From a phage: a stretch of 64,000 nucleotides of DNA. The notes beneath the pieces were generated by a model. It ran no database searches. It saw only the letters and a list, made by a program, of their open reading frames with translations, and was not told where the DNA came from. A program made the position numbers and the translations under genes. Location of the stretch: sequence record PZ179883.1; one strand, written 5' to 3'. Shown in pieces: positions 1,865 to 48,198 of the stretch. How positions within the stretch are numbered: the first letter of the stretch is position 1; every line of letters begins with the position of its first letter.

Positions 1865-3844
1865 ATGACTTTATTATCTCCGGGCATTGAGCTCAAAGAA
1901 ACTACGGTTCAAAGCACCGTGGTTAATAACTCTACTGGTACAGCAGCTTTGGCCGGTAAATTCCAGTGGGGTCCTGCTTTTCAGATCAAACAGGTTACAA
2001 ATGAAGTAGATTTAGTTAATACTTTTGGTCAACCTACAGCTGAAACTGCTGATTATTTTATGTCTGCAATGAATTTCTTACAATATGGAAATGATTTGCG
2101 AGTTGTGCGTGCTGTCGATAGAGATACCGCTAAAAACTCATCTCCGATTGCTGGTAATATTGAATACACTATTTCTACCCCAGGTAGTAACTACGCGGTT
2201 GGAGATAAAATCACAGTTAAGTATGTTTCAGAAGACATTGAAACGGAAGGTAAAATTACCGAAGTAGATGCTGATGGAAAAATTAAGAAAATTAATATTC
2301 CTACCGCAAAAATTATCGCTAAAGCGAAAGAAGTCGGTGAATATCCAGCATTAGGTTCTAACTGGACCGCGGAAATTTCTTCGTCTTCATCTGGTTTAGC
2401 TGCAGTAATAACTCTTGGAAAAATTATTACTGATTCCGGTATTTTATTAGCTGAGATTGAAAATGCTGAAGCTGCTATGACAGCGGTTGACTTTCAGGCA
2501 AATCTCGAAAAATATGGAATTCCAGGAGTAGTAGCTCTTTATCCAGGCGAGTTGGGCGATAAAATCGAAATTGAAATCGTATCTAAAGCTGACTACGCAA
2601 AAGGTGCTTCTGCATTACTCCCAATTTATCCAGGTGGCGGAACACGCGCATCTACTGCTAAGGCAGTGTTTGGATATGGACCGCAAACTGATTCACAATA
2701 CGCTATTATAGTTCGCCGTAATGATGCTATTGTTCAAAGTATTGTTCTTTCAACAAAGCGTGGTGAAAAAGACATTTATGATAGTAACATCTATATTGAT
2801 GACTTTTTCGCAAAAGGCGGTTCAGAATATATTTTTGCAACTGCACAAAACTGGCCAGAAGGCTTCTCTGGAATTTTAACTCTGTCTGGTGGATTATCAT
2901 CAAATTCTGAGGTCACAGCAGGAGATTTGATGGAAGCTTGGGACTTCTTTGCTGACCGTGAATCTGTTGATGTTCAGTTGTTTATTGCTGGTTCTTGCGC
3001 CGGTGAATCTTTAGAAACAGCATCTACTGTCCAAAAACACGTCGTTTCAATTGGGGATGCACGCCAAGATTGCTTAGTATTGTGCTCACCACCGCGTGAA
3101 ACTGTAGTTGGAATTCCTGTAACTCGTGCTGTTGATAACTTAGTCAATTGGAGAACCGCAGCAGGTTCATACACTGATAATAACTTTAATATCAGTTCAA
3201 CCTATGCAGCAATTGATGGTAACTACAAATATCAGTATGACAAATATAATGATGTGAATCGTTGGGTTCCATTAGCAGCTGATATTGCTGGTTTATGTGC
3301 AAGAACTGATAACGTATCTCAGACTTGGATGTCACCAGCTGGTTATAATCGTGGCCAAATTTTGAACGTTATTAAACTGGCTATTGAAACTCGCCAGGCT
3401 CAGCGCGACCGTTTATACCAAGAAGCTATCAACCCGGTAACCGGTACAGGTGGTGATGGTTACGTATTGTATGGTGATAAAACAGCTACTTCTGTTCCTT
3501 CTCCATTTGATCGTATTAACGTTCGTCGTCTGTTTAATATGTTGAAAACGAATATCGGACGTAGTTCAAAATATCGTTTGTTCGAATTAAACAACGCGTT
3601 TACTCGTTCATCATTCCGCACAGAAACTGCCCAGTACTTACAGGGAATTAAAGCTCTCGGTGGAATTTATGAATATCGTGTAGTTTGCGATACAACAAAT
3701 AATACTCCGTCAGTAATTGATAGAAATGAGTTTGTTGCAACATTCTACATCCAACCGGCTCGTAGTATAAATTATATCCAACTTAATTTCGTCGCAACTG
3801 CTACTGGTGCAGATTTCGATGAGTTAACTGGTCTTGCAGGTTAA
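1865..3844 (+). CDS. 18: contractile tail sheath protein
   Basis: 659 aa, same length and sequence as recalled T4 gp18; AAGAGGA RBS. Confidence 0.97.
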   Translation: MTLLSPGIELKETTVQSTVVNNSTGTAALAGKFQWGPAFQIKQVTNEVDLVNTFGQPTAETADYFMSAMNFLQYGNDLRVVRAVDRDTAKNSSPIAGNIEYTISTPGSNYAVGDKITVKYVSEDIETEGKITEVDADGKIKKINIPTAKIIAKAKEVGEYPALGSNWTAEISSSSSGLAAVITLGKIITDSGILLAEIENAEAAMTAVDFQANLEKYGIPGVVALYPGELGDKIEIEIVSKADYAKGASALLPIYPGGGTRASTAKAVFGYGPQTDSQYAIIVRRNDAIVQSIVLSTKRGEKDIYDSNIYIDDFFAKGGSEYIFATAQNWPEGFSGILTLSGGLSSNSEVTAGDLMEAWDFFADRESVDVQLFIAGSCAGESLETASTVQKHVVSIGDARQDCLVLCSPPRETVVGIPVTRAVDNLVNWRTAAGSYTDNNFNISSTYAAIDGNYKYQYDKYNDVNRWVPLAADIAGLCARTDNVSQTWMSPAGYNRGQILNVIKLAIETRQAQRDRLYQEAINPVTGTGGDGYVLYGDKTATSVPSPFDRINVRRLFNMLKTNIGRSSKYRLFELNNAFTRSSFRTETAQYLQGIKALGGIYEYRVVCDTTNNTPSVIDRNEFVATFYIQPARSINYIQLNFVATATGADFDELTGLAG

Positions 3845-3852
3845 TTGATTGT

Positions 3853-3866
3853 GGGGCTTCGGCCCC
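3853..3866 (+). terminator. GGGGCUUCGGCCCC hairpin (UUCG tetraloop) just after gene 18
   Basis: Perfect 5-bp GC stem with UUCG loop; no strong U-run, so may be a stability or processing element rather than a terminator. Confidence 0.4.
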
Positions 3867-3883
3867 TATTCTCGAGGAAACAA

Positions 3884-4489
3884 GTGATTATTTCTAAGTT
3901 TGTTACAATAAAACCAAGAAATCATTCAAAAATGTGGTCGACAATTCTGGGATATAAAGTATCATATCATGATACAATATCTGTTCCAATAGAATTAATG
4001 CCAAAGAATAGTAATAAAATAGTTGACGCTAAATGTGATTTGTGTGGTATTAAATTTAGTAGAAGCATTCAGCTTTTAAATAGAACACCCACACATGCAT
4101 GTAGAAAATGTAGCATTAAACAAGTTGCTATTAAAAATTCGGAAGTTCAATCTGGAATAAGCAGACCATGGCAAAGAGGCGATAAACATCCTCGATGGAC
4201 TGGTAAAAGAAAAGAGTTTGCATTATATGCTAGTAGAGTTCATTCTATAACTAAGTCAGCTAAAATAAGAAAAATTTGGTCAAAATGGCCGAATGCTGAT
4301 AAAATAGGAGTGTGCGGTGTAGAAGGTGCTTATCAACTCGATCATAAAGTATCTATCAAATATGGATTTGATAATTTAATTCCGCCGGAAATTATAGCAA
4401 GCGTAAAAAATTTAGAAATAATCACTTGGGAATCTAACCGAGAAAAGTCAAAAAGAAATAGCGTAGATCTTTGGGATTTACTAGAATGA
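3884..4489 (+). CDS. putative HNH-family endonuclease (freestanding homing-endonuclease candidate)
   Basis: ORF between genes 18 and 19; start placed at GTG 3884 after GAGGAAA RBS (ORF track opens at TTG 3845; alternative ATG 3932); N-terminal CxxC...CxxC pair; C-terminal D-H...N...N-R-E-K-S-K HNH-like motif. Confidence 0.6.
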   Translation: MIISKFVTIKPRNHSKMWSTILGYKVSYHDTISVPIELMPKNSNKIVDAKCDLCGIKFSRSIQLLNRTPTHACRKCSIKQVAIKNSEVQSGISRPWQRGDKHPRWTGKRKEFALYASRVHSITKSAKIRKIWSKWPNADKIGVCGVEGAYQLDHKVSIKYGFDNLIPPEIIASVKNLEIITWESNREKSKRNSVDLWDLLE

Positions 4490-4496
4490 TTCTAAA

Positions 4497-4514
4497 GGCC
4501 TGTTTCGGCAGGCC
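4497..4514 (+). terminator. hairpin GGCCUG-loop-CAGGCC after the HNH ORF
   Basis: 6-bp inverted repeat seen in sequence; no U-run. Confidence 0.3.
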
Positions 4515-4515
4515 A

Positions 4516-4523
4516 TATAAATA
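4516..4523 (+). promoter_or_regulatory. late promoter motif TATAAATA (distal copy upstream of gene 19)
   Basis: Exact TATAAATA. Confidence 0.5.
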
Positions 4524-4574
4524 CACTATATCCTTAATTCTTTAATTCTATATGCCCTAGGTTAAACATAGGGA

Positions 4575-4582
4575 TATAAATA
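4575..4582 (+). promoter_or_regulatory. late promoter TATAAATA (proximal, gene 19)
   Basis: Exact TATAAATA 15 nt upstream of gene 19 ATG. Confidence 0.7.
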
Positions 4583-4596
4583 CTACAGAGGCTAAT

Positions 4597-5088
4597 ATGT
4601 TTGTAGATGATGTAACACGAGCGTTTGAATCAGGTGATTTTGCGCGACCTAACTTATTCCAAGTAGAAATTTCTTATCTTGGACAAAATTTTACGTTTCA
4701 ATGTAAAGCCACTGCTTTACCAGCTGGTATTGTAGAAAAAATTCCAGTCGGATTTATGAACCGTAAAATTAACGTAGCAGGCGATCGTACATTCGATGAC
4801 TGGACTGTTACAGTAATGAACGATGAAGCTCATGATGCTCGCCAGAAGTTCGTTGATTGGCAAAGCATTGCTGCGGGGCAAGGAAACGAAATTACTGGTG
4901 GAAAACCTGCAGAGTATAAAAAGAGCGCTATCGTTCGTCAATATGCTCGTGACGCTAAGACAGTAACAAAAGAAATTGAAATTAAAGGTCTGTGGCCTAC
5001 TAACGTGGGTGAACTTCAATTGGATTGGGATTCAAACAATGAAATCCAAACATTTGAAGTAACTCTTGCTCTCGATTATTGGGAATAA
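4597..5088 (+). CDS. 19: tail tube protein
   Basis: 163 aa, matches recalled T4 gp19. Confidence 0.97.
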   Translation: MFVDDVTRAFESGDFARPNLFQVEISYLGQNFTFQCKATALPAGIVEKIPVGFMNRKINVAGDRTFDDWTVTVMNDEAHDARQKFVDWQSIAAGQGNEITGGKPAEYKKSAIVRQYARDAKTVTKEIEIKGLWPTNVGELQLDWDSNNEIQTFEVTLALDYWE

Positions 5089-5093
5089 AATGA

Positions 5094-6745
<1,652 letters not shown>

Positions 6746-6746
<1 letters not shown>

Positions 6747-6985
6747 TGGAAGGTTTAATTGAAGCTATTAAATCAAACGACCTCGTAGCCGCTCGTAAAT
6801 TATTTGCTGAAGCCATGGCTGCAAGAACGACTGATTTAATTAAAGAAGAAAAAATCGCTATCGCTCGTAATTTCTTAATCGAAGGTGAAGAACCTGATGA
6901 CGAGGATGATGACGAAGACGAAGATAGTGATGATAAAGACGACAAAAAAGACAAAGACTCTGACGAAGACGAGGATGATGAATAA
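6746..6985 (+). CDS. 67: prohead core protein with acidic C-terminal tail
   Basis: 79 aa; TAATG overlap with gene 20 stop; D/E-rich tail. Confidence 0.93.
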
Positions 6986-7410
6986 TGCTTCTGATCCCTG
7001 AAACTCATGAATTAGTTCTCGAGAATGTCGAAGCACTTATTCCTGAAGCACAGGGTCGCTTTGACGAATTGTCTTCTGCTTTAAATAAAGACGATATAAA
7101 TACAATTGTCGAGAATATGCTTGATGATGAAACTGATTTAGCGGTTGCATTAGCTTCTATTAATGAAAATATGCCGTTAAATGAATTTATCGTTAAACAT
7201 GTTTCTGCCCGTGGTGAAATTACTCGCACTAAAGATCGCAAAACCCGCGAACGTAATGCATTTCAAACTACCGGGTTGTCTAAAGCAAAACGTAGACAAA
7301 TTGCTCGTAAAGCTACCAAAACGAAGATTGCCAATCCAGCAGGTCAATCTCGTGCTCAGCGTAAGCGTAAAAAAGCTCTTAAACGCCGTAAAGCATTAGG
7401 ATTAAGCTAA
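6985..7410 (+). CDS. 68: prohead core protein
   Basis: 141 aa; TAATG overlap with gene 67. Confidence 0.93.
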
Positions 7411-16309: not shown

Positions 16310-16338
16310 TAGATATATTTATTACATGGTATTTAGAC

Positions 16339-17850
16339 ATGACTGACATTAAAGTACATTTTTATGATTTTAGTCACGTGAGAATTGATTGTGAAGAAAG
16401 TACATTTCATGAACTCCGTGATTTCTTTAGCTTTGAAGCTGACGGGTATCGTTTTAATCCTCGCTTCAGATATGGCAACTGGGATGGACGAATCCGTCTT
16501 TTAGATTATAATCGCCTTCTTCCATTCGGCTTAGTCGGGCAAATTAAAAAGTTCTGTGATAATTTTGGCTATAAAGCCTGGATTGACCCACAAATTAACG
16601 AAAAAGAAGAATTATCAAGAAAAGATTTTGATGAATGGCTTTCTAAATTAGAAATCTATTCAGGAAATAAAAGAATTGAACCACACTGGTATCAAAAAGA
16701 TGCAGTGTTCGAAGGATTAGTTAATCGTCGTAGAATTCTTAATCTTCCAACATCCGCAGGTAAATCTTTAATTCAAGCTTTGCTTGCACGTTATTATTTG
16801 GAAAATTATGAAGGTAAAATTCTTATCATTGTTCCAACAACTGCTCTGACAACTCAGATGGCTGATGACTTTGTTGACTATCGTTTATTCAGTCATGCAA
16901 TGATAAAGAAAATCGGTGGTGGAGCATCAAAAGATGATAAATATAAAAATGATGCACCGGTAATTGTTGGTACATGGCAAACTGTAGTAAAACAACCAAA
17001 AGAATGGTTCTCACAGTTTGGAATGATGATGAATGATGAATGCCATCTTGCCACAGGAAAAAGTATTTCATCTATCATATCAGGTTTAAATAACTGCATG
17101 TTCAAATTTGGTCTATCGGGTTCATTGCGTGATGGCAAAGCTAATATCATGCAGTATGTTGGAATGTTTGGTGAAATATTTAAGCCAGTAACGACTTCTA
17201 AATTAATGGAAGATGGACAAGTAACTGAGTTAAAAATTAATAGTATTTTTCTTCGCTATCCTGATGAGTTCACTACTAAATTAAAGGGAAAAACTTACCA
17301 AGAAGAAATAAAAATTATTACTGGGCTCAGTAAAAGAAATAAATGGATCGCTAAATTAGCTATTAAACTTGCACAAAAAGATGAAAACGCTTTTGTCATG
17401 TTTAAACATGTATCACATGGTAAAGCTATTTTCGATTTAATTAAAAATGAATACGATAAAGTTTATTACGTATCAGGGGAAGTTGATACCGAAACCCGCA
17501 ATATAATGAAAACCTTAGCTGAAAATGGTAAAGGAATAATTATAGTAGCTAGTTATGGTGTATTTTCTACTGGTATTTCAGTTAAAAATCTGCATCACGT
17601 TGTTTTAGCGCACGGTGTTAAATCAAAAATCATTGTATTACAAACAATCGGTCGTGTATTACGTAAGCATGGTTCTAAAACAATCGCAACGGTCTGGGAC
17701 CTCATAGATGACGCGGGCGTAGTTTCTAAATCAAAAACATCTTCTAAAAAATACTCGCATTTAAACTATCTTTTAAAACATGGACTTGATCGTATTCAGC
17801 GTTATGCTGATGAGAAGTTTAATTATGTGATGAAAGAGGTTAAACTTTGA
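16339..17850 (+). CDS. uvsW: UvsW DNA/RNA helicase
   Basis: 503 aa; helicase motifs (GKS Walker A, DECH); matches T4 UvsW. Confidence 0.96.
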   Translation: MTDIKVHFYDFSHVRIDCEESTFHELRDFFSFEADGYRFNPRFRYGNWDGRIRLLDYNRLLPFGLVGQIKKFCDNFGYKAWIDPQINEKEELSRKDFDEWLSKLEIYSGNKRIEPHWYQKDAVFEGLVNRRRILNLPTSAGKSLIQALLARYYLENYEGKILIIVPTTALTTQMADDFVDYRLFSHAMIKKIGGGASKDDKYKNDAPVIVGTWQTVVKQPKEWFSQFGMMMNDECHLATGKSISSIISGLNNCMFKFGLSGSLRDGKANIMQYVGMFGEIFKPVTTSKLMEDGQVTELKINSIFLRYPDEFTTKLKGKTYQEEIKIITGLSKRNKWIAKLAIKLAQKDENAFVMFKHVSHGKAIFDLIKNEYDKVYYVSGEVDTETRNIMKTLAENGKGIIIVASYGVFSTGISVKNLHHVVLAHGVKSKIIVLQTIGRVLRKHGSKTIATVWDLIDDAGVVSKSKTSSKKYSHLNYLLKHGLDRIQRYADEKFNYVMKEVKL

Positions 17851-18539
17851 ATTATAAATTAATATACGATAATTTAATTAATAGAGCCCAGAATCGGGCT
17901 CGCCTTAATGGATACACTGAAACTCATCATATAATTCCTAGATGTATGGGCGGTACAGATGATAAGTGTAATTTGGTAGAACTAACAGCTGAAGAGCATT
18001 TTATAGCTCATAAACTTTTAGCTAAAATTCATCCAAACCATTACGGTATAATTAAAGCCGTTATATGTATGGGGATGAATTCAAAGACTCATGAAAGACA
18101 CGTTAATAAATCTTACGCCTGGGAACGTCGTAAAATGGCAGAACTTCAATCAGGTGAAGGTAATCCATTTTACGGAAAACACCATACGGAAGAACATAAA
18201 CAATATATGTCAAAACTCATGAAAAATCGTCCAATTACGTGGGGAAGTAAAATTAGTAAAACTAAAAGAATGAACCCAACAAAATGGACTGAAGAAGCTA
18301 AAAGATTGCATTCTATCAATCAATCAGGTAAAAATAATGGCATGTATGGAAGGAAACATTCCGCTAAATCTATTCAGAAAATTAAAGATAACATGCCAGA
18401 TAATTCAGGAGCTAATAACCCAGCTGCTAAACCTATAGAAGTAAATGGTGTTAAGTATAAATGCATGAAAGATGCTTCTAAAGCTACTGGATTATCAATG
18501 TACAAACTAAGAATACTTAGAAAAACAGTTAATTTATAA
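17847..18539 (+). CDS. HNH homing endonuclease with NUMOD-like repeats and C-terminal helix-turn-helix
   Basis: TTG start overlapping the uvsW TGA (TTGA) with AAGAGG RBS 7 nt upstream; ETHHIIPR...GG...N...EEHFIAH HNH motif; three GxxNPxxGKxHxxxxK-type repeats; C-terminal HTH-like segment. Confidence 0.8.
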   Translation: MNYKLIYDNLINRAQNRARLNGYTETHHIIPRCMGGTDDKCNLVELTAEEHFIAHKLLAKIHPNHYGIIKAVICMGMNSKTHERHVNKSYAWERRKMAELQSGEGNPFYGKHHTEEHKQYMSKLMKNRPITWGSKISKTKRMNPTKWTEEAKRLHSINQSGKNNGMYGRKHSAKSIQKIKDNMPDNSGANNPAAKPIEVNGVKYKCMKDASKATGLSMYKLRILRKTVNL

Positions 18540-18552: not shown

Positions 18553-18564
18553 TTGGAGAAAAAG

Positions 18565-18795
18565 ATGTTACTAGAATTTAAACAATTTCTTTATGAAGCT
18601 TCTATTGATGAATTTATGGGTAAAATTGCCTCTTGTCAAACATTAGAAGGTCTAGAAGAACTTGAAGCTTATTATAAGAAAAGAGTTAAAGAAACTGAAT
18701 TAAAAGATACTGATGACATCTCTGTGAGAGATGCTTTGGCAGGAAAAAGAGCTGAATTAGAAGATTCAGACGATGAAGTAGAAGAAAGCTTTTAA
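18565..18795 (+). CDS. uvsW.1: UvsW.1 small acidic protein
   Basis: 76 aa from MLLEFKQF after GGAG RBS; matches T4 UvsW.1. Confidence 0.85.
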   Translation: MLLEFKQFLYEASIDEFMGKIASCQTLEGLEELEAYYKKRVKETELKDTDDISVRDALAGKRAELEDSDDEVEESF

Positions 18796-27392: not shown

Positions 27393-27445
27393 CCTCATGT
27401 TATGTCAGTAAGATTATTATAACACAACACGAGGGACTTGTAAAC
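27393..27445 (-). promoter_or_regulatory. early (sigma70-type) promoter with dyad symmetry, repeat copy 1
   Basis: Minus strand GTTTAC-17/18 nt-TATAAT; inverted repeat CCTCGTGTT/AACATGAGG flanks -10; 50 of 53 nt identical to 43043-43095. Confidence 0.6.
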
Positions 27446-29502
27446 TACATTTTGAACTTTTTAGACATTCCGTTGATATTAACCAAAGAAGCCAAGATTT
27501 GAGAAACTTCGTTTTCCTCTTCTTTTGATTCTTCTACAAGGAATTGGTTAAATCCAGTCATTGGACGAACTTCACCAGTTTCCATTAGATGGTCGCCATC
27601 ATATACCGATTCTTCTAATTGTTCAGAAGGAGGAACGATTGTGCCTTCGATTAGATACTTGTTATAAGCAGTTTCTTTCATCATGTACGTACTCACTTTA
27701 TTAATCTTCAGTAAAATTCCACGTGGTAGAATAACTTCAGCTTCTGACGGAAATCCTGATAAATGACCCGGAACGATAACTTTGATTCGCTCAGCTCCTT
27801 TAATTACCATACCCACGCTAGTTTCAGCATCTTCATTCGCATAAGCAGAGTGACTACCCATATGCATTAAATCTTCAGCATCAACTGAACCTTCTCCTTC
27901 ACCAGAAAATACTGCACCAGAATCATCTAGAGCCATATAGTTTTTACCATACTCACCGAAGATATTTGGTTTAAGCGATGTGGATACGAAGTTCTTGAAA
28001 TAGAACATTTTATTTTCAATATTATGACGTAAAGTTTTAAAGGTAACTTCTTGTCCACGGTAAAGCGTAGTTCCTGGAGGAAGAACTGATCCTTTGGCAA
28101 AGGCAGAATCCATTGTCTCGATGTGTTTAATAGCTCGTTCCATGTATTCTTCACGAGTAGAATCTGGTTTACCTAAAAGGAACGAGTTCATTTCAACATA
28201 TGAATCTGCGCAATAATCTTCAATTACATCAGACTCAGCCCGAGTTAATCCTTTTGGGGGTACTTCAGTACTTGCATATTCATACGCTTGAGAAGCAGAC
28301 TCATTAATCAATTTATACACGCCATTCATGACAAATTGAACAATAGCTACCTTTTCATCTGGCGTGGCTTTAGAACCTTTAACTAAATCATTGATAATTT
28401 TCTTAATAACATCAAAGCTATTAGAAATATTAATGTCAGCAAGATCGCTTAAAATTTTATCAGTTTTATAATCAAAAAATTCTTTATTCTTTAAATATTC
28501 TTGAGAACCTTGATATGTTATATCGCTCTGTAACTTGATAGATGGATCACGTAAACGTGCATGAGCCAATGCAATATGATTTCGGAAGCTTTCTAGTTCA
28601 TAATCGCTAGATTTAAAACGAGAAGCGCTTCTCATACCACCGATAGCTCCTTTGCTGAAGTTTGAACCAACCTGAATAACGCCAGAGTTCATTGGTCCTT
28701 CTGCTTTATATACCGGAACTTTAGATTCAAACTCTTGATATTTCTTAGCAGCGAAGCTATCACCCTGAAGTGAAGCATCGACAGTAGAATATTGAGCTTG
28801 TGCTGCTAATCGACGACTAATTTTAGTTTTCTGAATAACAGCTTGGTCCGTGCGCTTATCATTTTCTAAAGCAATAGAAGCAGCAACAGCAACAGCTTTA
28901 GGAACAGCATTACCTGTTTTAACATCTACATAAACATCACCAACCTTTGATTCAACTTTTGTGAATAACTCAGTTGAAATAGGAGGTACACCTGGAATGT
29001 CTTCTAAATTGGCATTTTTACGATAAACCATAATATATGCGTACTTTTTATCATAATCCCAGATTTCCTTTAAAAGAACATATCGACCTGCTCCTTTAGT
29101 ACGTACTAAACGGTCAGCAATAACTTGCATTTGACGAGCAGCGCCATTTGTTTTACTCTTTAGTACGCGGAATAAGCATGCATCAATTTTATACTGTTTC
29201 ATTGTTTGAAGAGCAGTATCAAAAACAGCGTTAATGACGCCAATTGGATTTCCACCCAAGTTTCTAAGTTTAACCAGTGATAATTTCTCGTTGACACCTA
29301 TCATTACGATATGCATCATTTTATCGCCCGGCTTAACGTTTTTATTTGTATCACCTCCAGAGGTGTATGTACAAAATCTAAATCCAGGAAGCACGCTTTC
29401 TTCGCCGGCTTGAATAGCAAAAATTTGAGGTATTTTATGCTTAGGATTTAAGTTAACAACCGGCGCCGAAGCGCCGTCAAATAATTCTGTAATAAGTTCC
29501 AT
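27445..29502 (-). CDS. Alt-like ADP-ribosyltransferase (second tandem paralog)
   Basis: 685 aa; N-terminus MELITELFD shared with Alt; conserved TLYRGQ, FVSTSL and EAEVILPRG motifs; central region divergent. Confidence 0.85.
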   Translation of the reverse strand: MELITELFDGASAPVVNLNPKHKIPQIFAIQAGEESVLPGFRFCTYTSGGDTNKNVKPGDKMMHIVMIGVNEKLSLVKLRNLGGNPIGVINAVFDTALQTMKQYKIDACLFRVLKSKTNGAARQMQVIADRLVRTKGAGRYVLLKEIWDYDKKYAYIMVYRKNANLEDIPGVPPISTELFTKVESKVGDVYVDVKTGNAVPKAVAVAASIALENDKRTDQAVIQKTKISRRLAAQAQYSTVDASLQGDSFAAKKYQEFESKVPVYKAEGPMNSGVIQVGSNFSKGAIGGMRSASRFKSSDYELESFRNHIALAHARLRDPSIKLQSDITYQGSQEYLKNKEFFDYKTDKILSDLADINISNSFDVIKKIINDLVKGSKATPDEKVAIVQFVMNGVYKLINESASQAYEYASTEVPPKGLTRAESDVIEDYCADSYVEMNSFLLGKPDSTREEYMERAIKHIETMDSAFAKGSVLPPGTTLYRGQEVTFKTLRHNIENKMFYFKNFVSTSLKPNIFGEYGKNYMALDDSGAVFSGEGEGSVDAEDLMHMGSHSAYANEDAETSVGMVIKGAERIKVIVPGHLSGFPSEAEVILPRGILLKINKVSTYMMKETAYNKYLIEGTIVPPSEQLEESVYDGDHLMETGEVRPMTGFNQFLVEESKEEENEVSQILASLVNINGMSKKFKM

Positions 29503-38957: not shown

Positions 38958-39190
38958 AGTACGCCATACACCCTTTGTGCTTCAACTAATCCATCAAAAT
39001 CCAGTTTAAGATGTGTTATTTGGTCACCATCACCTGGATTCACAATTACTAATACTGAACGAGGAGTTTCGGTAATAACACGAACCGACGTTTCAGGAAA
39101 TCGTTCAGAAACCTTATTTACCAATTCTTGAGCAAATAGTTTAACTTTTTCTTGGAATTCTTTAACAGTAATTGGTTTTTCGCTTAGCAT
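38954..39190 (-). CDS. hypothetical protein (cd.x)
   Basis: 78-aa ORF. Confidence 0.6.
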   Translation of the reverse strand: MLSEKPITVKEFQEKVKLFAQELVNKVSERFPETSVRVITETPRSVLVIVNPGDGDQITHLKLDFDGLVEAQRVYGVL

Positions 39191-39711
39191 GTTGATCCTA
39201 GCTCCTTACTTTCAACGTTTTTAACTAATTTGACAGAAACTAATTCAGCATCTTGGGTAATCATTACCGGGCCTTCTTCATACTCTTCAAGATATTCTAG
39301 AGCTTTCTTTTTAGCTTCTTCCTTCGTATCAGTTTGAGCATAGATATAAAACATACAACCAGTAATACCTACTACTTTCCACTTAATTTCTTTATCAGTT
39401 TTAATTTCAAATTTACTGATAGAGTCATCTTTTTGAACTTCTTCGAAAAAATAATATTCTGACATATAAGTAATTGAAAATAGCGGGCTATCTTTATAAG
39501 ATTCGCCCATTACATCAACAGCTTTATACCAGCAATCGTCAATTTCGCGTTTAATGCTAATAACATTTTTCGCAGGATCTATTTTTACTTTAAATGAATT
39601 TTCCCCAATAAACTGAGCAATTCGTTTATTAGCCCCGCAAGTTTCATTAAAAATATCTTTATATCCAGCTTTAAAGCGATAAACCTTATCTTCTTCAAAC
39701 CATTCGCTCAT
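39184..39711 (-). CDS. hypothetical protein (cd.x)
   Basis: 175-aa ORF with GAGG RBS. Confidence 0.7.
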   Translation of the reverse strand: MSEWFEEDKVYRFKAGYKDIFNETCGANKRIAQFIGENSFKVKIDPAKNVISIKREIDDCWYKAVDVMGESYKDSPLFSITYMSEYYFFEEVQKDDSISKFEIKTDKEIKWKVVGITGCMFYIYAQTDTKEEAKKKALEYLEEYEEGPVMITQDAELVSVKLVKNVESKELGSTC

Positions 39712-40442: not shown

Positions 40443-41663
<1,221 letters not shown>

Positions 41664-41667
<4 letters not shown>

Positions 41668-44712: not shown

Positions 44713-45882
44713 TTAAAAGTATTTTTTAAAACTCATCATAACTTTATCATCAACATCATTATCAATCTGTGCAACAAGATAAGATGACAGTTCTACTTCT
44801 TGTGGCGCTGATTGAACATTATCAGAATTAAGATATTCACGAATCCAAGGATATGGATGTTTAACCGGAGCATCGGTAATTGGGCATGGAAGACCGCACT
44901 GTTTCATACGAGATACAGTTAAGTAATCAATAAAGCTCCACATGCTATTTGTATTTAATCCAGGAACATCACCATCTTTAAATAAATGAACCGCCCAGTC
45001 TTTTTCTTGGCGGTTAACTTCCATGAAAATATCAACTGCTTCTTGTTCACACTCTTGAGCAATTTTAACCCATTCATCACCATCAGTGCCAAGTTGAAGT
45101 TGACGAATAATATATTGGGTGCCTTTAAGGTGAAGTTGCTCATCACGAGCAATGAACTTCATAATCTTGGCATTACCTTCCATGATTTCCATGTTCTTAT
45201 GGAAGTTAAAGGTACATGCGAAAGATACATAAAAACGAATAGCTTCCAATGCGTTGATTACGTGCAGGCAGAGGTAAAGAGATTTCATTAGTGCTCGTTT
45301 AGTACATTCAACAACTTTGCCTAACTCTTCTTTACGAAATCCTTCTGATAAAATTCCTTCATAATCTTCAACCGCATTCTGATATTCACGAGTCTTAACT
45401 AGAACGTCATCATAATAACGACCAATAGATTCAGCACGTTTCATGATAGCTTTATCTAATACAATCTCATCAAATACCTTTGATGGATCAGTATAAAGAT
45501 TTCGCATAATATGAGTATATGAACGGCTGTGAATAGTTTCACTAAAAGTCCATGTAGCAACCCATGTATCAAGACTTGGGTCTGAAATTAACGACATAAG
45601 TACAGCAGACGGTGCACGACCCTGAATGCTATCCAAAAGTGATTGATACTTCAGGTTATTAGTAAAAATATCTTGCTGATACTGAGGAAGCTTGTTAAAT
45701 TGTGCAGCATCCATCATCAAGTTTACTTCTTCAGGACGCCAGAAAAATGACAACTGCTTTTCGGTTAAATCTTCAAAAACTTTATGACGTTGAATATCGT
45801 AACGCGCAATACCAAGACCTGAACCGAAGAACATAGGTTCTTTTAAAACATCAACTGGATTTGTATTAAAAACTGTGCTCAT
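44713..45882 (-). CDS. nrdB: ribonucleotide reductase small subunit (uninterrupted, no intron)
   Basis: Continuous 389-aa ORF matching T4 NrdB. Confidence 0.96.
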   Translation of the reverse strand: MSTVFNTNPVDVLKEPMFFGSGLGIARYDIQRHKVFEDLTEKQLSFFWRPEEVNLMMDAAQFNKLPQYQQDIFTNNLKYQSLLDSIQGRAPSAVLMSLISDPSLDTWVATWTFSETIHSRSYTHIMRNLYTDPSKVFDEIVLDKAIMKRAESIGRYYDDVLVKTREYQNAVEDYEGILSEGFRKEELGKVVECTKRALMKSLYLCLHVINALEAIRFYVSFACTFNFHKNMEIMEGNAKIMKFIARDEQLHLKGTQYIIRQLQLGTDGDEWVKIAQECEQEAVDIFMEVNRQEKDWAVHLFKDGDVPGLNTNSMWSFIDYLTVSRMKQCGLPCPITDAPVKHPYPWIREYLNSDNVQSAPQEVELSSYLVAQIDNDVDDKVMMSFKKYF

Positions 45883-45933
45883 AAATTTTCCGCTTAGTTA
45901 ATAGATAGTGACTCGTCCATGAGTCAAATTATA

Positions 45934-48198
45934 TCATAATTTACAGGATGAACAATCTTCAGCTTTTGGAGTTTCTATTTCATAATCATCAGTACCAGAA
46001 CCATCACGGGTATTATGATAATAGAAATTTTTTCCGCCAAAATACCAAAAATACAAAAGGTCATCAATCATTATTGACATTGGAACCTTTCCTTTTGGAA
46101 AAATCTGCGGGTCATAATATGTATTCGCTGAAGCTGATTGACATACCCATTTCAGCATAATAGCTACTTGCGTAAGATAAGGTTTATTACCTTTCTTAGC
46201 TAATTTCCATGTATAATCATAGAGGTCTATGTTATGTTCAATATTGGGCACGACTTGATTAAAGGAACCCTCTTTTGATTCTTTAACCGAGACTGGTCCA
46301 CGTGGAGGCTCGATACCGTTTGTACTGTTAGAAACTTGGGAAGATGACTCACATGGCATAAGTGCTGATAATGTGCTATTACGGATGCCAAAGAGCTTAA
46401 GGTCTTCCCGCAGCGCCGACCAGTCACAAACGTATTTTGGAGCTGCGATTTGGTCAATCTTTTTATTGTACCAGTCGATAGGTAATTCGCCTCGAGACCA
46501 ACGAGTGTCTGAATAATATTCGCAAGGTCCTTTTTCTTTGGCGAGCTTAATGGATGCTTTAATGAGTCCATACTGTAATCTCTCAAATAGTTCATGTGTT
46601 AAATCGTTAGCATCTTCATAAGAAGCAAAGTTACTTGCCAGCCAAGCTGCATAGTTGGTAACACCTACACCAAGATTTCGACGCTTTTTAGCTTTTTCTG
46701 CTTCAGGAACTGGATATCCTTGGTAATCCAAAAGATTATCAAGAGCGCGAACTTGAACTTCTGCTAATTCATTAATTTTATCTTGGTCTTGCCAATCGAA
46801 GTTATCCAACACAAATGCAGATAACGTGCACAATCCAATTTCAGCATCAGGACTATTCACATCATTTGTTGGAATAGCAATTTCACAGCACAAGTTACTC
46901 TGACGAATAGGTGCCTTTTCACGAATAAATGGAGTATAGTTATTCGTATTATCAATGAACTGCACATAAATCCTTGCTGTTCCTGAACGTTCAGTCATGA
47001 GCAATTCAAATAGTTCACGGGCTTTAATACGCTTTTTACGAATATTAGGGTCTTTTTCTGCTGCTTCGTATAATTCACGGAAACGGTCTTGGTCTTTAAA
47101 ATAAGAATAATAAAGTTCGCCACCCATTTCATGCGGACTAAACAAAGTAATGTAATCGTTCTTTCCGAATCGTTCCATCATTAGGTCATTCAGCTGAACA
47201 CCATAATCCATATGACGGATACGGTTTTCTTCTACACCTTTGTTATTTTTCAAAACGAGAAGATTTTCAACTTCCAAATGCCAAATAGGATAATAAGCAG
47301 TAGCAGCGCCGCCACGAATTCCGCCCTGTGAACATGATTTAACAGCAGTCTGAAAATGTTTCCAAAAAGGAATAACACCAGTATGACGCACTTCACCTGT
47401 GCCAATCTTAGAACCTTCGGCACGAATCATACCAACGTTAATGCCGATTCCAGCTCGTTTAGAAATATACTCAACAATTGAAGCAGAAGCCTTATTGATA
47501 GACTTCAGCGAATCACCTGCCTCAATAACAACGCATGAACTAAATTGCCGAGTTGGAGTACGACATCCAGCCATAATAGGAGTTGGCAGTGAAATCTGTC
47601 GAGTAGATACTGCTTCATAAAAACGAATAACATGTTTTAATCTGTCAACAGGTTCATCTTGATGCAATGCCATTCCAATAGTCATAAATGCAAACTGTGG
47701 AGTTTCATAAATTTGACCAGTGGTTTTATCTTTAACGAGATATTTTTCTTTTAATTGCATCGCCCCGGAATAAGTAAATTCCATATCCCGCTCGTGCTTA
47801 ATTTTTGATTCTAAAAATGTAATTTCTTCTGCAGAATATTTTGACAACAATTCAGGGTCGTATTTACCTTCATTTACACAGTAAGAAATATGGTCAATAA
47901 ATGAACGGGGCTCATACTGTCCGTACACATGTTTACGAAGAGCAAACATTAAACAACGTGCAGCTACATATTGGTAATCAGGCTCTTCAACTGAAATAGA
48001 ATTCGCAGCAGCCTTAATTACAATGGTTTGAATGTCATCAGTGGTCATTCCATCACGGAGATATGATTTAATATTTTCATATAATTCATAAGGATCTACA
48101 GATGTTCCTTCAGCTGCCCAAGATAAAACTTTAATAATTTTTTGTGGATCAAAGCTCTGAGAAACACCACTACTTTTGATAACATTAATTAATTGCAT
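45934..48198 (-). CDS. nrdA: ribonucleotide reductase large subunit
   Basis: 754 aa, matches T4 NrdA. Confidence 0.97.
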   Translation of the reverse strand: MQLINVIKSSGVSQSFDPQKIIKVLSWAAEGTSVDPYELYENIKSYLRDGMTTDDIQTIVIKAAANSISVEEPDYQYVAARCLMFALRKHVYGQYEPRSFIDHISYCVNEGKYDPELLSKYSAEEITFLESKIKHERDMEFTYSGAMQLKEKYLVKDKTTGQIYETPQFAFMTIGMALHQDEPVDRLKHVIRFYEAVSTRQISLPTPIMAGCRTPTRQFSSCVVIEAGDSLKSINKASASIVEYISKRAGIGINVGMIRAEGSKIGTGEVRHTGVIPFWKHFQTAVKSCSQGGIRGGAATAYYPIWHLEVENLLVLKNNKGVEENRIRHMDYGVQLNDLMMERFGKNDYITLFSPHEMGGELYYSYFKDQDRFRELYEAAEKDPNIRKKRIKARELFELLMTERSGTARIYVQFIDNTNNYTPFIREKAPIRQSNLCCEIAIPTNDVNSPDAEIGLCTLSAFVLDNFDWQDQDKINELAEVQVRALDNLLDYQGYPVPEAEKAKKRRNLGVGVTNYAAWLASNFASYEDANDLTHELFERLQYGLIKASIKLAKEKGPCEYYSDTRWSRGELPIDWYNKKIDQIAAPKYVCDWSALREDLKLFGIRNSTLSALMPCESSSQVSNSTNGIEPPRGPVSVKESKEGSFNQVVPNIEHNIDLYDYTWKLAKKGNKPYLTQVAIMLKWVCQSASANTYYDPQIFPKGKVPMSIMIDDLLYFWYFGGKNFYYHNTRDGSGTDDYEIETPKAEDCSSCKL

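Follow-up and report, generated by a model that had tools for sequence, protein, structure and literature searches.

The 64,000-nucleotide (nt) stretch of phage DNA analysed here (record PZ179883.1), hereafter the window, carries ORF 19.1, an open reading frame (ORF) of 201 amino acids (aa), between the tail sheath gene 18 and the tail tube gene 19, and this ORF (3884-4489, + strand) is probably a freestanding homing-endonuclease gene, of the HNH type and from a family not yet characterised. A homing element would fit the exact-boundary presence/absence polymorphism, the use of one site in distant genera and the discordance between allele and flank relationships, all of which we observed alongside the anatomy of the insert, the conservation of its product and the resemblance of the predicted protein to HNH folds. 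The ORF is already public as gene 19.1 of phage T6; what is noteworthy about it is its strict fidelity to one site and its apparent place in an HNH clade missed by curated profiles. In a broader and more tentative reading, the C-terminal domain may represent a large cysteine-less HNH clade outside the curated profiles, whose T4-superfamily branch would be a site-locked homing lineage. Taken as a whole, this extension, in which the branch would target the conserved 3' end of gene 18 (NFVATxTGADFDE codons) in Straboviridae and beyond and in which alleles would replace each other, swapping zinc-finger specificity domains at the single site, is possible but doubtful.

Boundaries and contents of the insert

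A preliminary description of the window had placed an ORF of 201 to 214 aa between genes 18 and 19, in an interval that is a short intergenic region in T4. The ORF is present (3845-4489), and the T4 spacer is indeed short, at 116 nt with no ORF, versus 752 nt here. The comparison of the 18-19 junction with insert-free relatives that the same description proposed gave exact boundaries. Alignment to two phages without the ORF, T4 GT7 and SA20RB, together with BLAST, places insert-specific DNA at 3846-4488 (+ strand), 643 nt standing in place of the 7 nt ACGGTGC of T4 for a net gain of 636 nt. The insert begins directly 3' of the gene 18 stop and T4 homology picks up again at 4489: the T4 junction reads TAA-TACGGTGC-ATTCTAAAGGCC, and that of the window TAA, 3845-4488, ATTCTAAAGGCC.

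Within these boundaries lie a hairpin, a ribosome-binding site and the GTG-initiated ORF, all on the + strand. The hairpin, GGGGC-UUCG-GCCCC (3853-3866; -10.8 kcal/mol, z = -2.15), starts 8 nt past the gene 18 stop, and a Shine-Dalgarno sequence, GAGGA (3874-3878), conserved in phages RB7 and HY03, stands 5 nt 5' of the GTG. The longest open frame at 3845-4489 would encode 214 aa from a TTG, and 201 aa from the GTG at 3884, with a TGA stop at 4487-4489. The GTG is most likely the real start, because GAGGA precedes it, all homologues begin with M-I-I/T at this position and the profile of the matching family, PHROG 5104, aligns from there; some homologues start the ORF with ATG.

The remainder of the 18-19 spacer (4489-4596, + strand) lies outside the insert and matches T4, as well as hundreds of relatives without the insert, at 100% identity. 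It holds a hairpin at 4497-4514 (-12.8 kcal/mol), late-promoter motifs TATAAATA at 4516-4523 and 4575-4582, and copies of TTAATTC at 4534-4540 and 4542-4548, all on the + strand. This identity shows the hairpin, the two promoter motifs and the two copies of TTAATTC to be native to T4. The preliminary description had correctly recorded the paired motifs and the doubled TTAATTC, and it had taken them for a partial duplication of the gene 19 promoter region upon insertion, a view that the unaltered spacer contradicts. Its picture of a gene bracketed by GC hairpins holds in that both hairpins exist and fails in that only the one at 3853-3866 belongs to the insert. The annotation of SA20RB marks the native spacer stretch as a terminator plus late promoter. 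Since gene 18 reaches its stop before the ORF, and gene 19 keeps its native hairpin and late promoter after it, the late operon is unbroken, as had been claimed.

The surrounding region comprises Tequatrovirus late genes in the order 17, 18, ORF 19.1, 19 and 20, with gene 17 (large terminase) at 1-1833, gene 18 at 1865-3844, gene 19 at 4597-5088 and gene 20 (portal) ending at 6746. By megablast, 676 phage records match 3300-5100, the best at 98-99% identity (for example G10400, G4507, PP01 and T6).

Domains and HNH assignment of the ORF 19.1 protein

In a profile search the protein matches PHROG 5104, a family without assigned function, at E = 6e-82, and it is a direct member, being 98-99% identical to the proteins of T6, PP01 and ECML-134; phage VR7 annotates its own copy as 'similar to T6 gp19.1'. 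A word-indexed search retrieved 47 homologue clusters. Their sources were phages and metagenomes throughout, and the one Pfam domain among them was DUF7487 on the most distant. An exhaustive profile search extended this to 7002 clusters (50% identity) at E <= 1e-3, many of which share just the last ~100 residues, behind differing N-termini.

The preliminary description had noted two CxxC pairs and a C-terminal D-H...N...N-R-E-K motif, and both are found. The pairs, CDLC and CRKC, form a zinc-finger core (C51, C54, C73 and C76; 4034-4111, + strand) within a putative DNA-binding domain of residues 1 to ~95. Residues 96-201 (4169-4486, + strand) make up the predicted nuclease domain, whose HNH core (4340-4447, + strand) consists of D153-H154 in a first strand, N176-L177 in a second and N185-R-E-K188 in a helix. 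Across 43 full-length relatives, the invariant residues include C51, C54 and C73 (C76 being nearly so) and D153, H154, N176, L177, W182, N185, R186 and K188. When 37 C-terminal domains were picked for less than 45% identity to each other, the only columns left invariant were the D, H, N and N of the motif.

Secondary structure prediction places strands at 150-154 and 177-181 and a helix at 182-188. Confident AlphaFold models (full-length pLDDT 89.9, C-terminal domain 93.7) show the beta-beta-alpha arrangement that the preliminary description had anticipated, with D-H closing one strand, N-L opening the next and N185 in the helix that follows. This predicted fold resembles those of solved HNH nucleases, and the structure-comparison list further includes Cas9 HNH domains, McrA, T5 SciA, Cap5, PacI and Hpy99I. 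The CxxC pairs usual around an HNH core are absent, and W182 and S184 sit in the helix instead. We therefore read the protein, from motif, motif invariance and a modest fold match, and with no curated profile behind the assignment, as a putative divergent HNH domain that lacks cysteines and is fused to a DNA-binding domain of the zinc-finger type.

Sequence profiles respond mainly to the N-terminal part. The treble-clef family DUF4379 (PF14311) matches weakly, with 15 of the 43 members at E < 0.1 and a best E of 8e-4, and the query, at 14.3-14.5 bits, falls short of the gathering threshold of 24.5; the N-terminal domain thus resembles a DUF4379 treble-clef zinc finger, with membership not established. 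A PDB profile search matched the mitoribosomal protein mS66 at E = 0.004, other signals being ribosomal zinc ribbons. Three PDB sequence searches, with the single sequence, the family profile and a profile of the diverse C-terminal domains, returned zinc fingers or noise and no HNH protein. Scanning the family with Pfam gave HNH_4 for 1 of 43 members (E = 0.078), and Pfam on distant relatives that share the C-terminal domain alone found just DUF7487 upstream of it, and no bridge to HNH.

Distribution, movement and competing explanations

Two alleles occupy the site in Tequatrovirus. The T6-type allele, to which the window's copy belongs (>=95% aa identity), occurs in 70 records of the phage collection, and an RB3-type allele (RB3, RB7, RB10, HY03, W143) in 48; in the others of the roughly 500-676 Tequatrovirus-level records, T4 among them, the site is empty. 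The gene is thus missing from T4 and most close relatives, which is the distribution that the insertion proposed in the preliminary description called for. The RB3-type allele occupies exactly the same junctions and is a mosaic, sharing the leader and the last ~75 codons with the T6-type allele at 80-97% nt identity (86-97% when taken over the last ~220 nt) and carrying a different, unrelated N-terminal domain.

In all 11 genomic contexts examined, a homologue lies directly downstream of gene 18: in the Tequatrovirus-type phages RB7 and HY03, in VR7 and VR26 (Gaprivervirus), phiS (Krischvirus), CHI14 (Winklervirus), the Klebsiella phage Roth17, the Acinetobacter phage Tonic, Thanatos-2 (Shewanella), vB_VmeM-32 (Vibrio, Emmerichvirinae) and phiM12 (Sinorhizobium). 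For several of these phages there are close relatives without the gene, and Gaprivervirus is a second genus with the same element/empty junction. On these sequence comparisons, the presence or absence of the gene at one site, with exact boundaries, among close relatives is the pattern expected of a homing gene.

Movement is also suggested by a pairwise identity matrix of the ORF against the flanking proteins gp18 and gp19. The flanks of the window and HY03 are 100% identical in aa sequence and the ORFs 57%; for VR7 and VR26 the figures are 99% and 35%. The HY03 allele is nearest to those of Roth17 (65%) and Thanatos-2 (63%), phages whose flanks are just 72-76% identical to its own. Because allele relationships contradict flank relationships in this way, the matrix indicates horizontal replacement at one site.

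Further marks of movement lie in gene 18 itself. In vB_VmeM-32 (L011, 2160-3357) a 66-nt direct repeat brackets the element, its two copies 85% identical and made up of the last 53 nt of gene 18 and 13 nt of spacer. The downstream remnant keeps a near-consensus ...GANFDE..., the functional upstream copy reads ...GADLNE..., and the differences between repeats cluster in the conserved GADFDE codons; the repeat therefore points to insertion inside gene 18 together with a replacement 3' end. The homologue in this phage is larger, with two zinc-finger repeats, and a frameshift splits it into ORFs of 278 and 107 aa, the second of which continues into the duplicated gene 18 tail and ends ...STGANFDEIVGSANLG before its stop.

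In the Tequatroviruses, a silent gene 18 haplotype, AATTTCGTCGCA (T3787, C3793; 3785-3796, + strand), is linked to the presence of the element. At this site the variants AATTTCGTC and AACTTCGTA are contrasted, and AATTTCGTCGCA (variant AATTTCGTC) is found in 9 of 9 element-bearing Tequatroviruses versus 4 of 14 with an empty site, in a small sample uncorrected for relatedness. Only upstream of about -60 from the stop does the T6-type flank match one of the empty-site haplotypes. The linkage could be explained by co-conversion over a short tract, or by a target variant conferring protection, some 50-60 nt inside gene 18, and the four empty-site carriers could equally have lost the element or hold resistant alleles.

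The leader of the ORF bears on its expression. At an empty site the gene 18 stop is followed by a hairpin, a late promoter and gene 19, and every element-bearing genome examined has its own, unrelated hairpin at the same position between gene 18 and the ORF. VR7, Tonic and CHI14 also have their own TATAAATA there; the window allele has the hairpin, no late-promoter motif and a GTG start, and the late-promoter motif of gene 18 lies at 1829-1836. The hairpin at 3853-3866 probably acts by stabilising or in part terminating the transcript of gene 18 and by restricting read-through to the ORF. It lacks a T-tract and is hence not called by the terminator scan, which, like the sigma-70 promoter scan, gave no more calls in 3600-4800 than expected by chance. 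Sequestration of the ribosome-binding site is not supported, as the 76-nt leader folds no better than shuffled sequence (z = -0.06), and an intron or RNA element was rejected, with no Rfam match in 3500-4900.

We infer the following scheme for expression, target, catalysis and homing. Late transcription would reach the ORF by read-through of the gene 18 transcript across the hairpin at 3853-3866, and weak translation from the GTG would keep the nuclease level low. The N-terminal four-cysteine zinc-finger module of ~95 residues would bind DNA and the C-terminal cysteine-less HNH (beta-beta-alpha-metal) module of ~105 residues would cut it, with H154 as general base and N176 and N185 as structural and metal-binding asparagines. 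In a mixed infection with an empty-site relative, the enzyme would nick or cut the relative's genome at, or up to ~60 nt upstream of, the junction between gene 18 stop and spacer (...AACTTCGTAGCA...GGTTAA|TACGGTGC|ATTCTAAAGG). Recombination-dependent repair of the T4 type would then copy the gene and a short flank from the donor, which would itself be protected by the splitting of the junction, by the silent AATTTCGTC variant in gene 18, or by both.

Several results weigh against the homing-endonuclease reading or lend it no support. Foldseek against the PDB found nothing significant, and the HNH profile search that the preliminary description had proposed gave no curated match for the query in Pfam or NCBIfam. 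Membership of the Mob family was tried and rejected (hhalign probability 0.1% versus T4 MobE and 0.2% versus a mob-like ORF at 17847-18539 of the window). Bearers share the last 50 nt of gene 18 with several empty-site Tequatroviruses, and four empty-site phages carry the linked haplotype, so that variant-based immunity is only a candidate. The presence/absence pattern could be explained by repeated loss as well as by gain, the cleavage site is not readable from the sequence, and a literature search covering T6 19.1, gene 18/19 elements and reviews of T4 mobile DNA found, in the library searched, no experimental paper on the gene. Repeated loss, including from T4, is central to one alternative, a domesticated accessory nuclease that benefits the phage and passes mostly vertically at an ancestral post-18 position, for example by degrading competitor or host DNA or by promoting recombination or amplification of nearby genes. 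Its appeal lies in a position conserved across very distant T4-like phages, in strong purifying selection, in intact ORFs in more than 100 records and in the precedent of the T6 homing endonuclease SegB, which can benefit the phage by amplifying anti-defence loci (PMC13096335). We nonetheless find it unlikely, given an allele phylogeny grossly discordant with the flanks, 2-3 unrelated alleles within single genera, the absence of the gene from ~80% of Tequatrovirus-level records, and the lack of any PADLOC defence-system match to ORF 19.1 or of a conserved partner gene; such a role would in any case overlap with homing and not exclude it.

The remaining alternatives concern what the protein does. 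The preliminary description had left room, beside a freestanding homing endonuclease, for a degenerate derivative; the former fits the comparative data, and the latter is unsupported, since the predicted catalytic residues are intact and the last 75 codons evolve with a ratio of nonsynonymous to synonymous substitutions (dN/dS) of 0.10-0.15 against five other alleles (0.3-0.6 for the N-terminal 130 codons, with synonymous sites near saturation). Because of the low ratio, we take the nuclease domain to be under purifying selection and the gene not to be a relic. An HNH-derived protein without catalysis, persisting as a DNA-binding protein or a decaying ORF, is accordingly improbable, even though the usual CxxC pairs around the core are missing, curated HNH profiles are silent and at least one homologue, that of vB_VmeM-32, is frameshifted: D-H, N and N alone stay invariant in a very diverse set, thousands of clusters carry the domain behind varied N-termini, and many active HNH enzymes, such as the colicin DNases and I-HmuI, are generally known to do without cysteine pairs. 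That the sequence-profile signal comes from the zinc-finger part only (DUF4379, mS66, ribosomal zinc ribbons), in a gene adjoining hairpins and late promoters, could instead suggest a zinc-finger regulator or RNA-binding factor of late expression with a coincidental HNH-like motif. We give this very little credence, as motif, motif invariance and fold matches agree on HNH and an optional, horizontally shuffled gene is unlikely to regulate essential tail genes. Least probable of all is a packaging-associated HNH protein of the HK97 gp74 or GVE2 type, partnering the large terminase, whose gene lies one position upstream. DNA packaging proceeds without the gene in T4 and most relatives, terminases of the T4 type work by the headful mechanism with a nuclease domain of their own, and the gene is not conserved within species and, in the contexts examined, always lies 3' of 18, never adjoining 16 or 17.

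Two side observations concern the more distant contexts. A distant relative of the protein, P0047, which combines DUF7487 with the same C-terminal domain, is encoded in a large uncultured phage with no recognisable sheath gene adjoining; near it, otherwise similar contigs (L028 versus L029/L030, ~5869-7023) differ by ~4 small genes directly downstream. In Thanatos-2 the large-terminase gene consists of two consecutive ORFs (L031, 1-1980), the first of which also matches the N-terminal domain of Tn7 TnsA-like endonucleases, perhaps a nuclease inserted into or fused with gene 17.

Annotation, other elements of the window and known systems

Names given to the gene in GenBank conflict, ranging over hypothetical protein, HNH endonuclease, homing endonuclease, type II restriction endonuclease, holin and head morphogenesis protein, in records that include NC_054907 (T6), MW883059 (SYGD1), OP168898 (ZCEC14) and PQ657791 (Roth17). 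In several records the labels 'putative head morphogenesis protein', 'holin' and 'type II restriction endonuclease' are probably mistaken. The annotations of RB7 and RB10 omit the gene altogether, although RB7 has an intact ORF. In their Table 5, Petrov et al. 2010 (PMC2993671) count a single 'other HNH' for T6, which may or may not be 19.1.

The window differs from T4 at other sites as well. A 230-aa ORF (17847-18539, + strand), which carries two NUMOD3 repeats (Pfam E = 8e-14) and, N-terminally, an H-N-H motif (ETHHIIPRCMGG...NLVELTAEEHFIAH), lies between uvsW (16339-17850) and a uvsW.1-like ORF (18553-18795), where T4 has no counterpart (17843-18522 being extra); from its sequence it looks like a second, mob-like freestanding homing-endonuclease gene. 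Missing relative to T4 are segE (T4 112044-112680) at 16325-16345, the nrdB group I intron with I-TevIII (T4 138457-139058) at 45215-45218, and nrdB.1 with mobE (T4 139719-140420) at 45882-45938. segD is apparently present, its T4 interval (106561-107232) falling inside a block that aligns at 96.8%. The window's mobile-element set is therefore unlike that of T4 at most sites. A complete Alt-like ADP-ribosyltransferase paralogue of 685 aa (27445-29502, - strand; PF03496, E = 7e-20) spans ~1.7 kb missing from T4 (27464-29155), which has there just the remnants alt.-1/-2/-3, annotated as an old partial alt duplication. Two further ORFs in T4-absent DNA, of 175 aa (39184-39711, - strand) and 106 aa (41347-41667, - strand), are located between cd.2 and cd.3 and next to pseT and have no Pfam match.

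The gene is carried without an assigned function by T6, RB3, PP01 and more than 100 other sequenced phages. If it encodes an HNH homing endonuclease, the conflicting annotations could be corrected and a family missed by HNH profiles added. A hotspot of recombination and marker exclusion would then be predicted at the tail sheath/tube junction, which would matter for phage crosses, engineered therapeutic phages and phylogenies based on genes 18 and 19, and the locus would offer a well-sampled natural case in which alleles turn over, and domains are swapped, at a single homing site. Should the site-locked clade prove real, it would provide a natural series of nucleases with diverged DNA-binding modules and one conserved target, and would explain local mosaicism and marker exclusion around genes 18-19 in T-even crosses. 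The T-even phages are the classic system of intronless homing, and because such elements are common in them, no general principle is altered.

Among known systems, the freestanding homing genes of T-even phages (SegA-G, MobA-E, Hef), which act by intronless homing, offer the closest parallel in layout. Like ORF 19.1, they are optional genes lying between essential conserved genes in the same orientation, are patchy in close relatives with linked flank polymorphism, are probably expressed late and weakly behind an upstream hairpin, and are modular, with nuclease and DNA-binding domains, those of ORF 19.1 having predicted functions only. However, ORF 19.1 is not of the GIY-YIG type, and it has no detectable sequence relation to MobE or to the mob-like ORF of the window. 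Mob enzymes carry their HNH domain N-terminally, some with NUMOD, whereas the predicted nuclease domain of ORF 19.1 is C-terminal, accompanied by no NUMOD or AP2 and preceded by a treble-clef zinc finger. The intron-encoded I-TevIII and I-HmuI likewise belong to the HNH homing enzymes of phages, the former pairing its HNH domain with a zinc finger, but ORF 19.1 lies outside an intron, has the reverse domain order and shows no profile-level similarity to either. The small zinc-ribbon or nicking HNH endonucleases Gme HNH (PDB 4h9d), phage GVE2 HNH (PDB 5h0o) and T5 SciA (PDB 9qgx) share just 9-19% sequence identity with it; their cores are held by CxxC zinc sites, replaced in ORF 19.1 (W182 and S184 in the helix), and they are single-domain proteins, some of them terminase partners, unlike the two-domain ORF 19.1. 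Finally, the terminase-associated HNH proteins of the HK97 gp74 and GVE2 kind are encoded beside the terminase, whereas ORF 19.1 follows gene 18 and is absent from T4 and most relatives.

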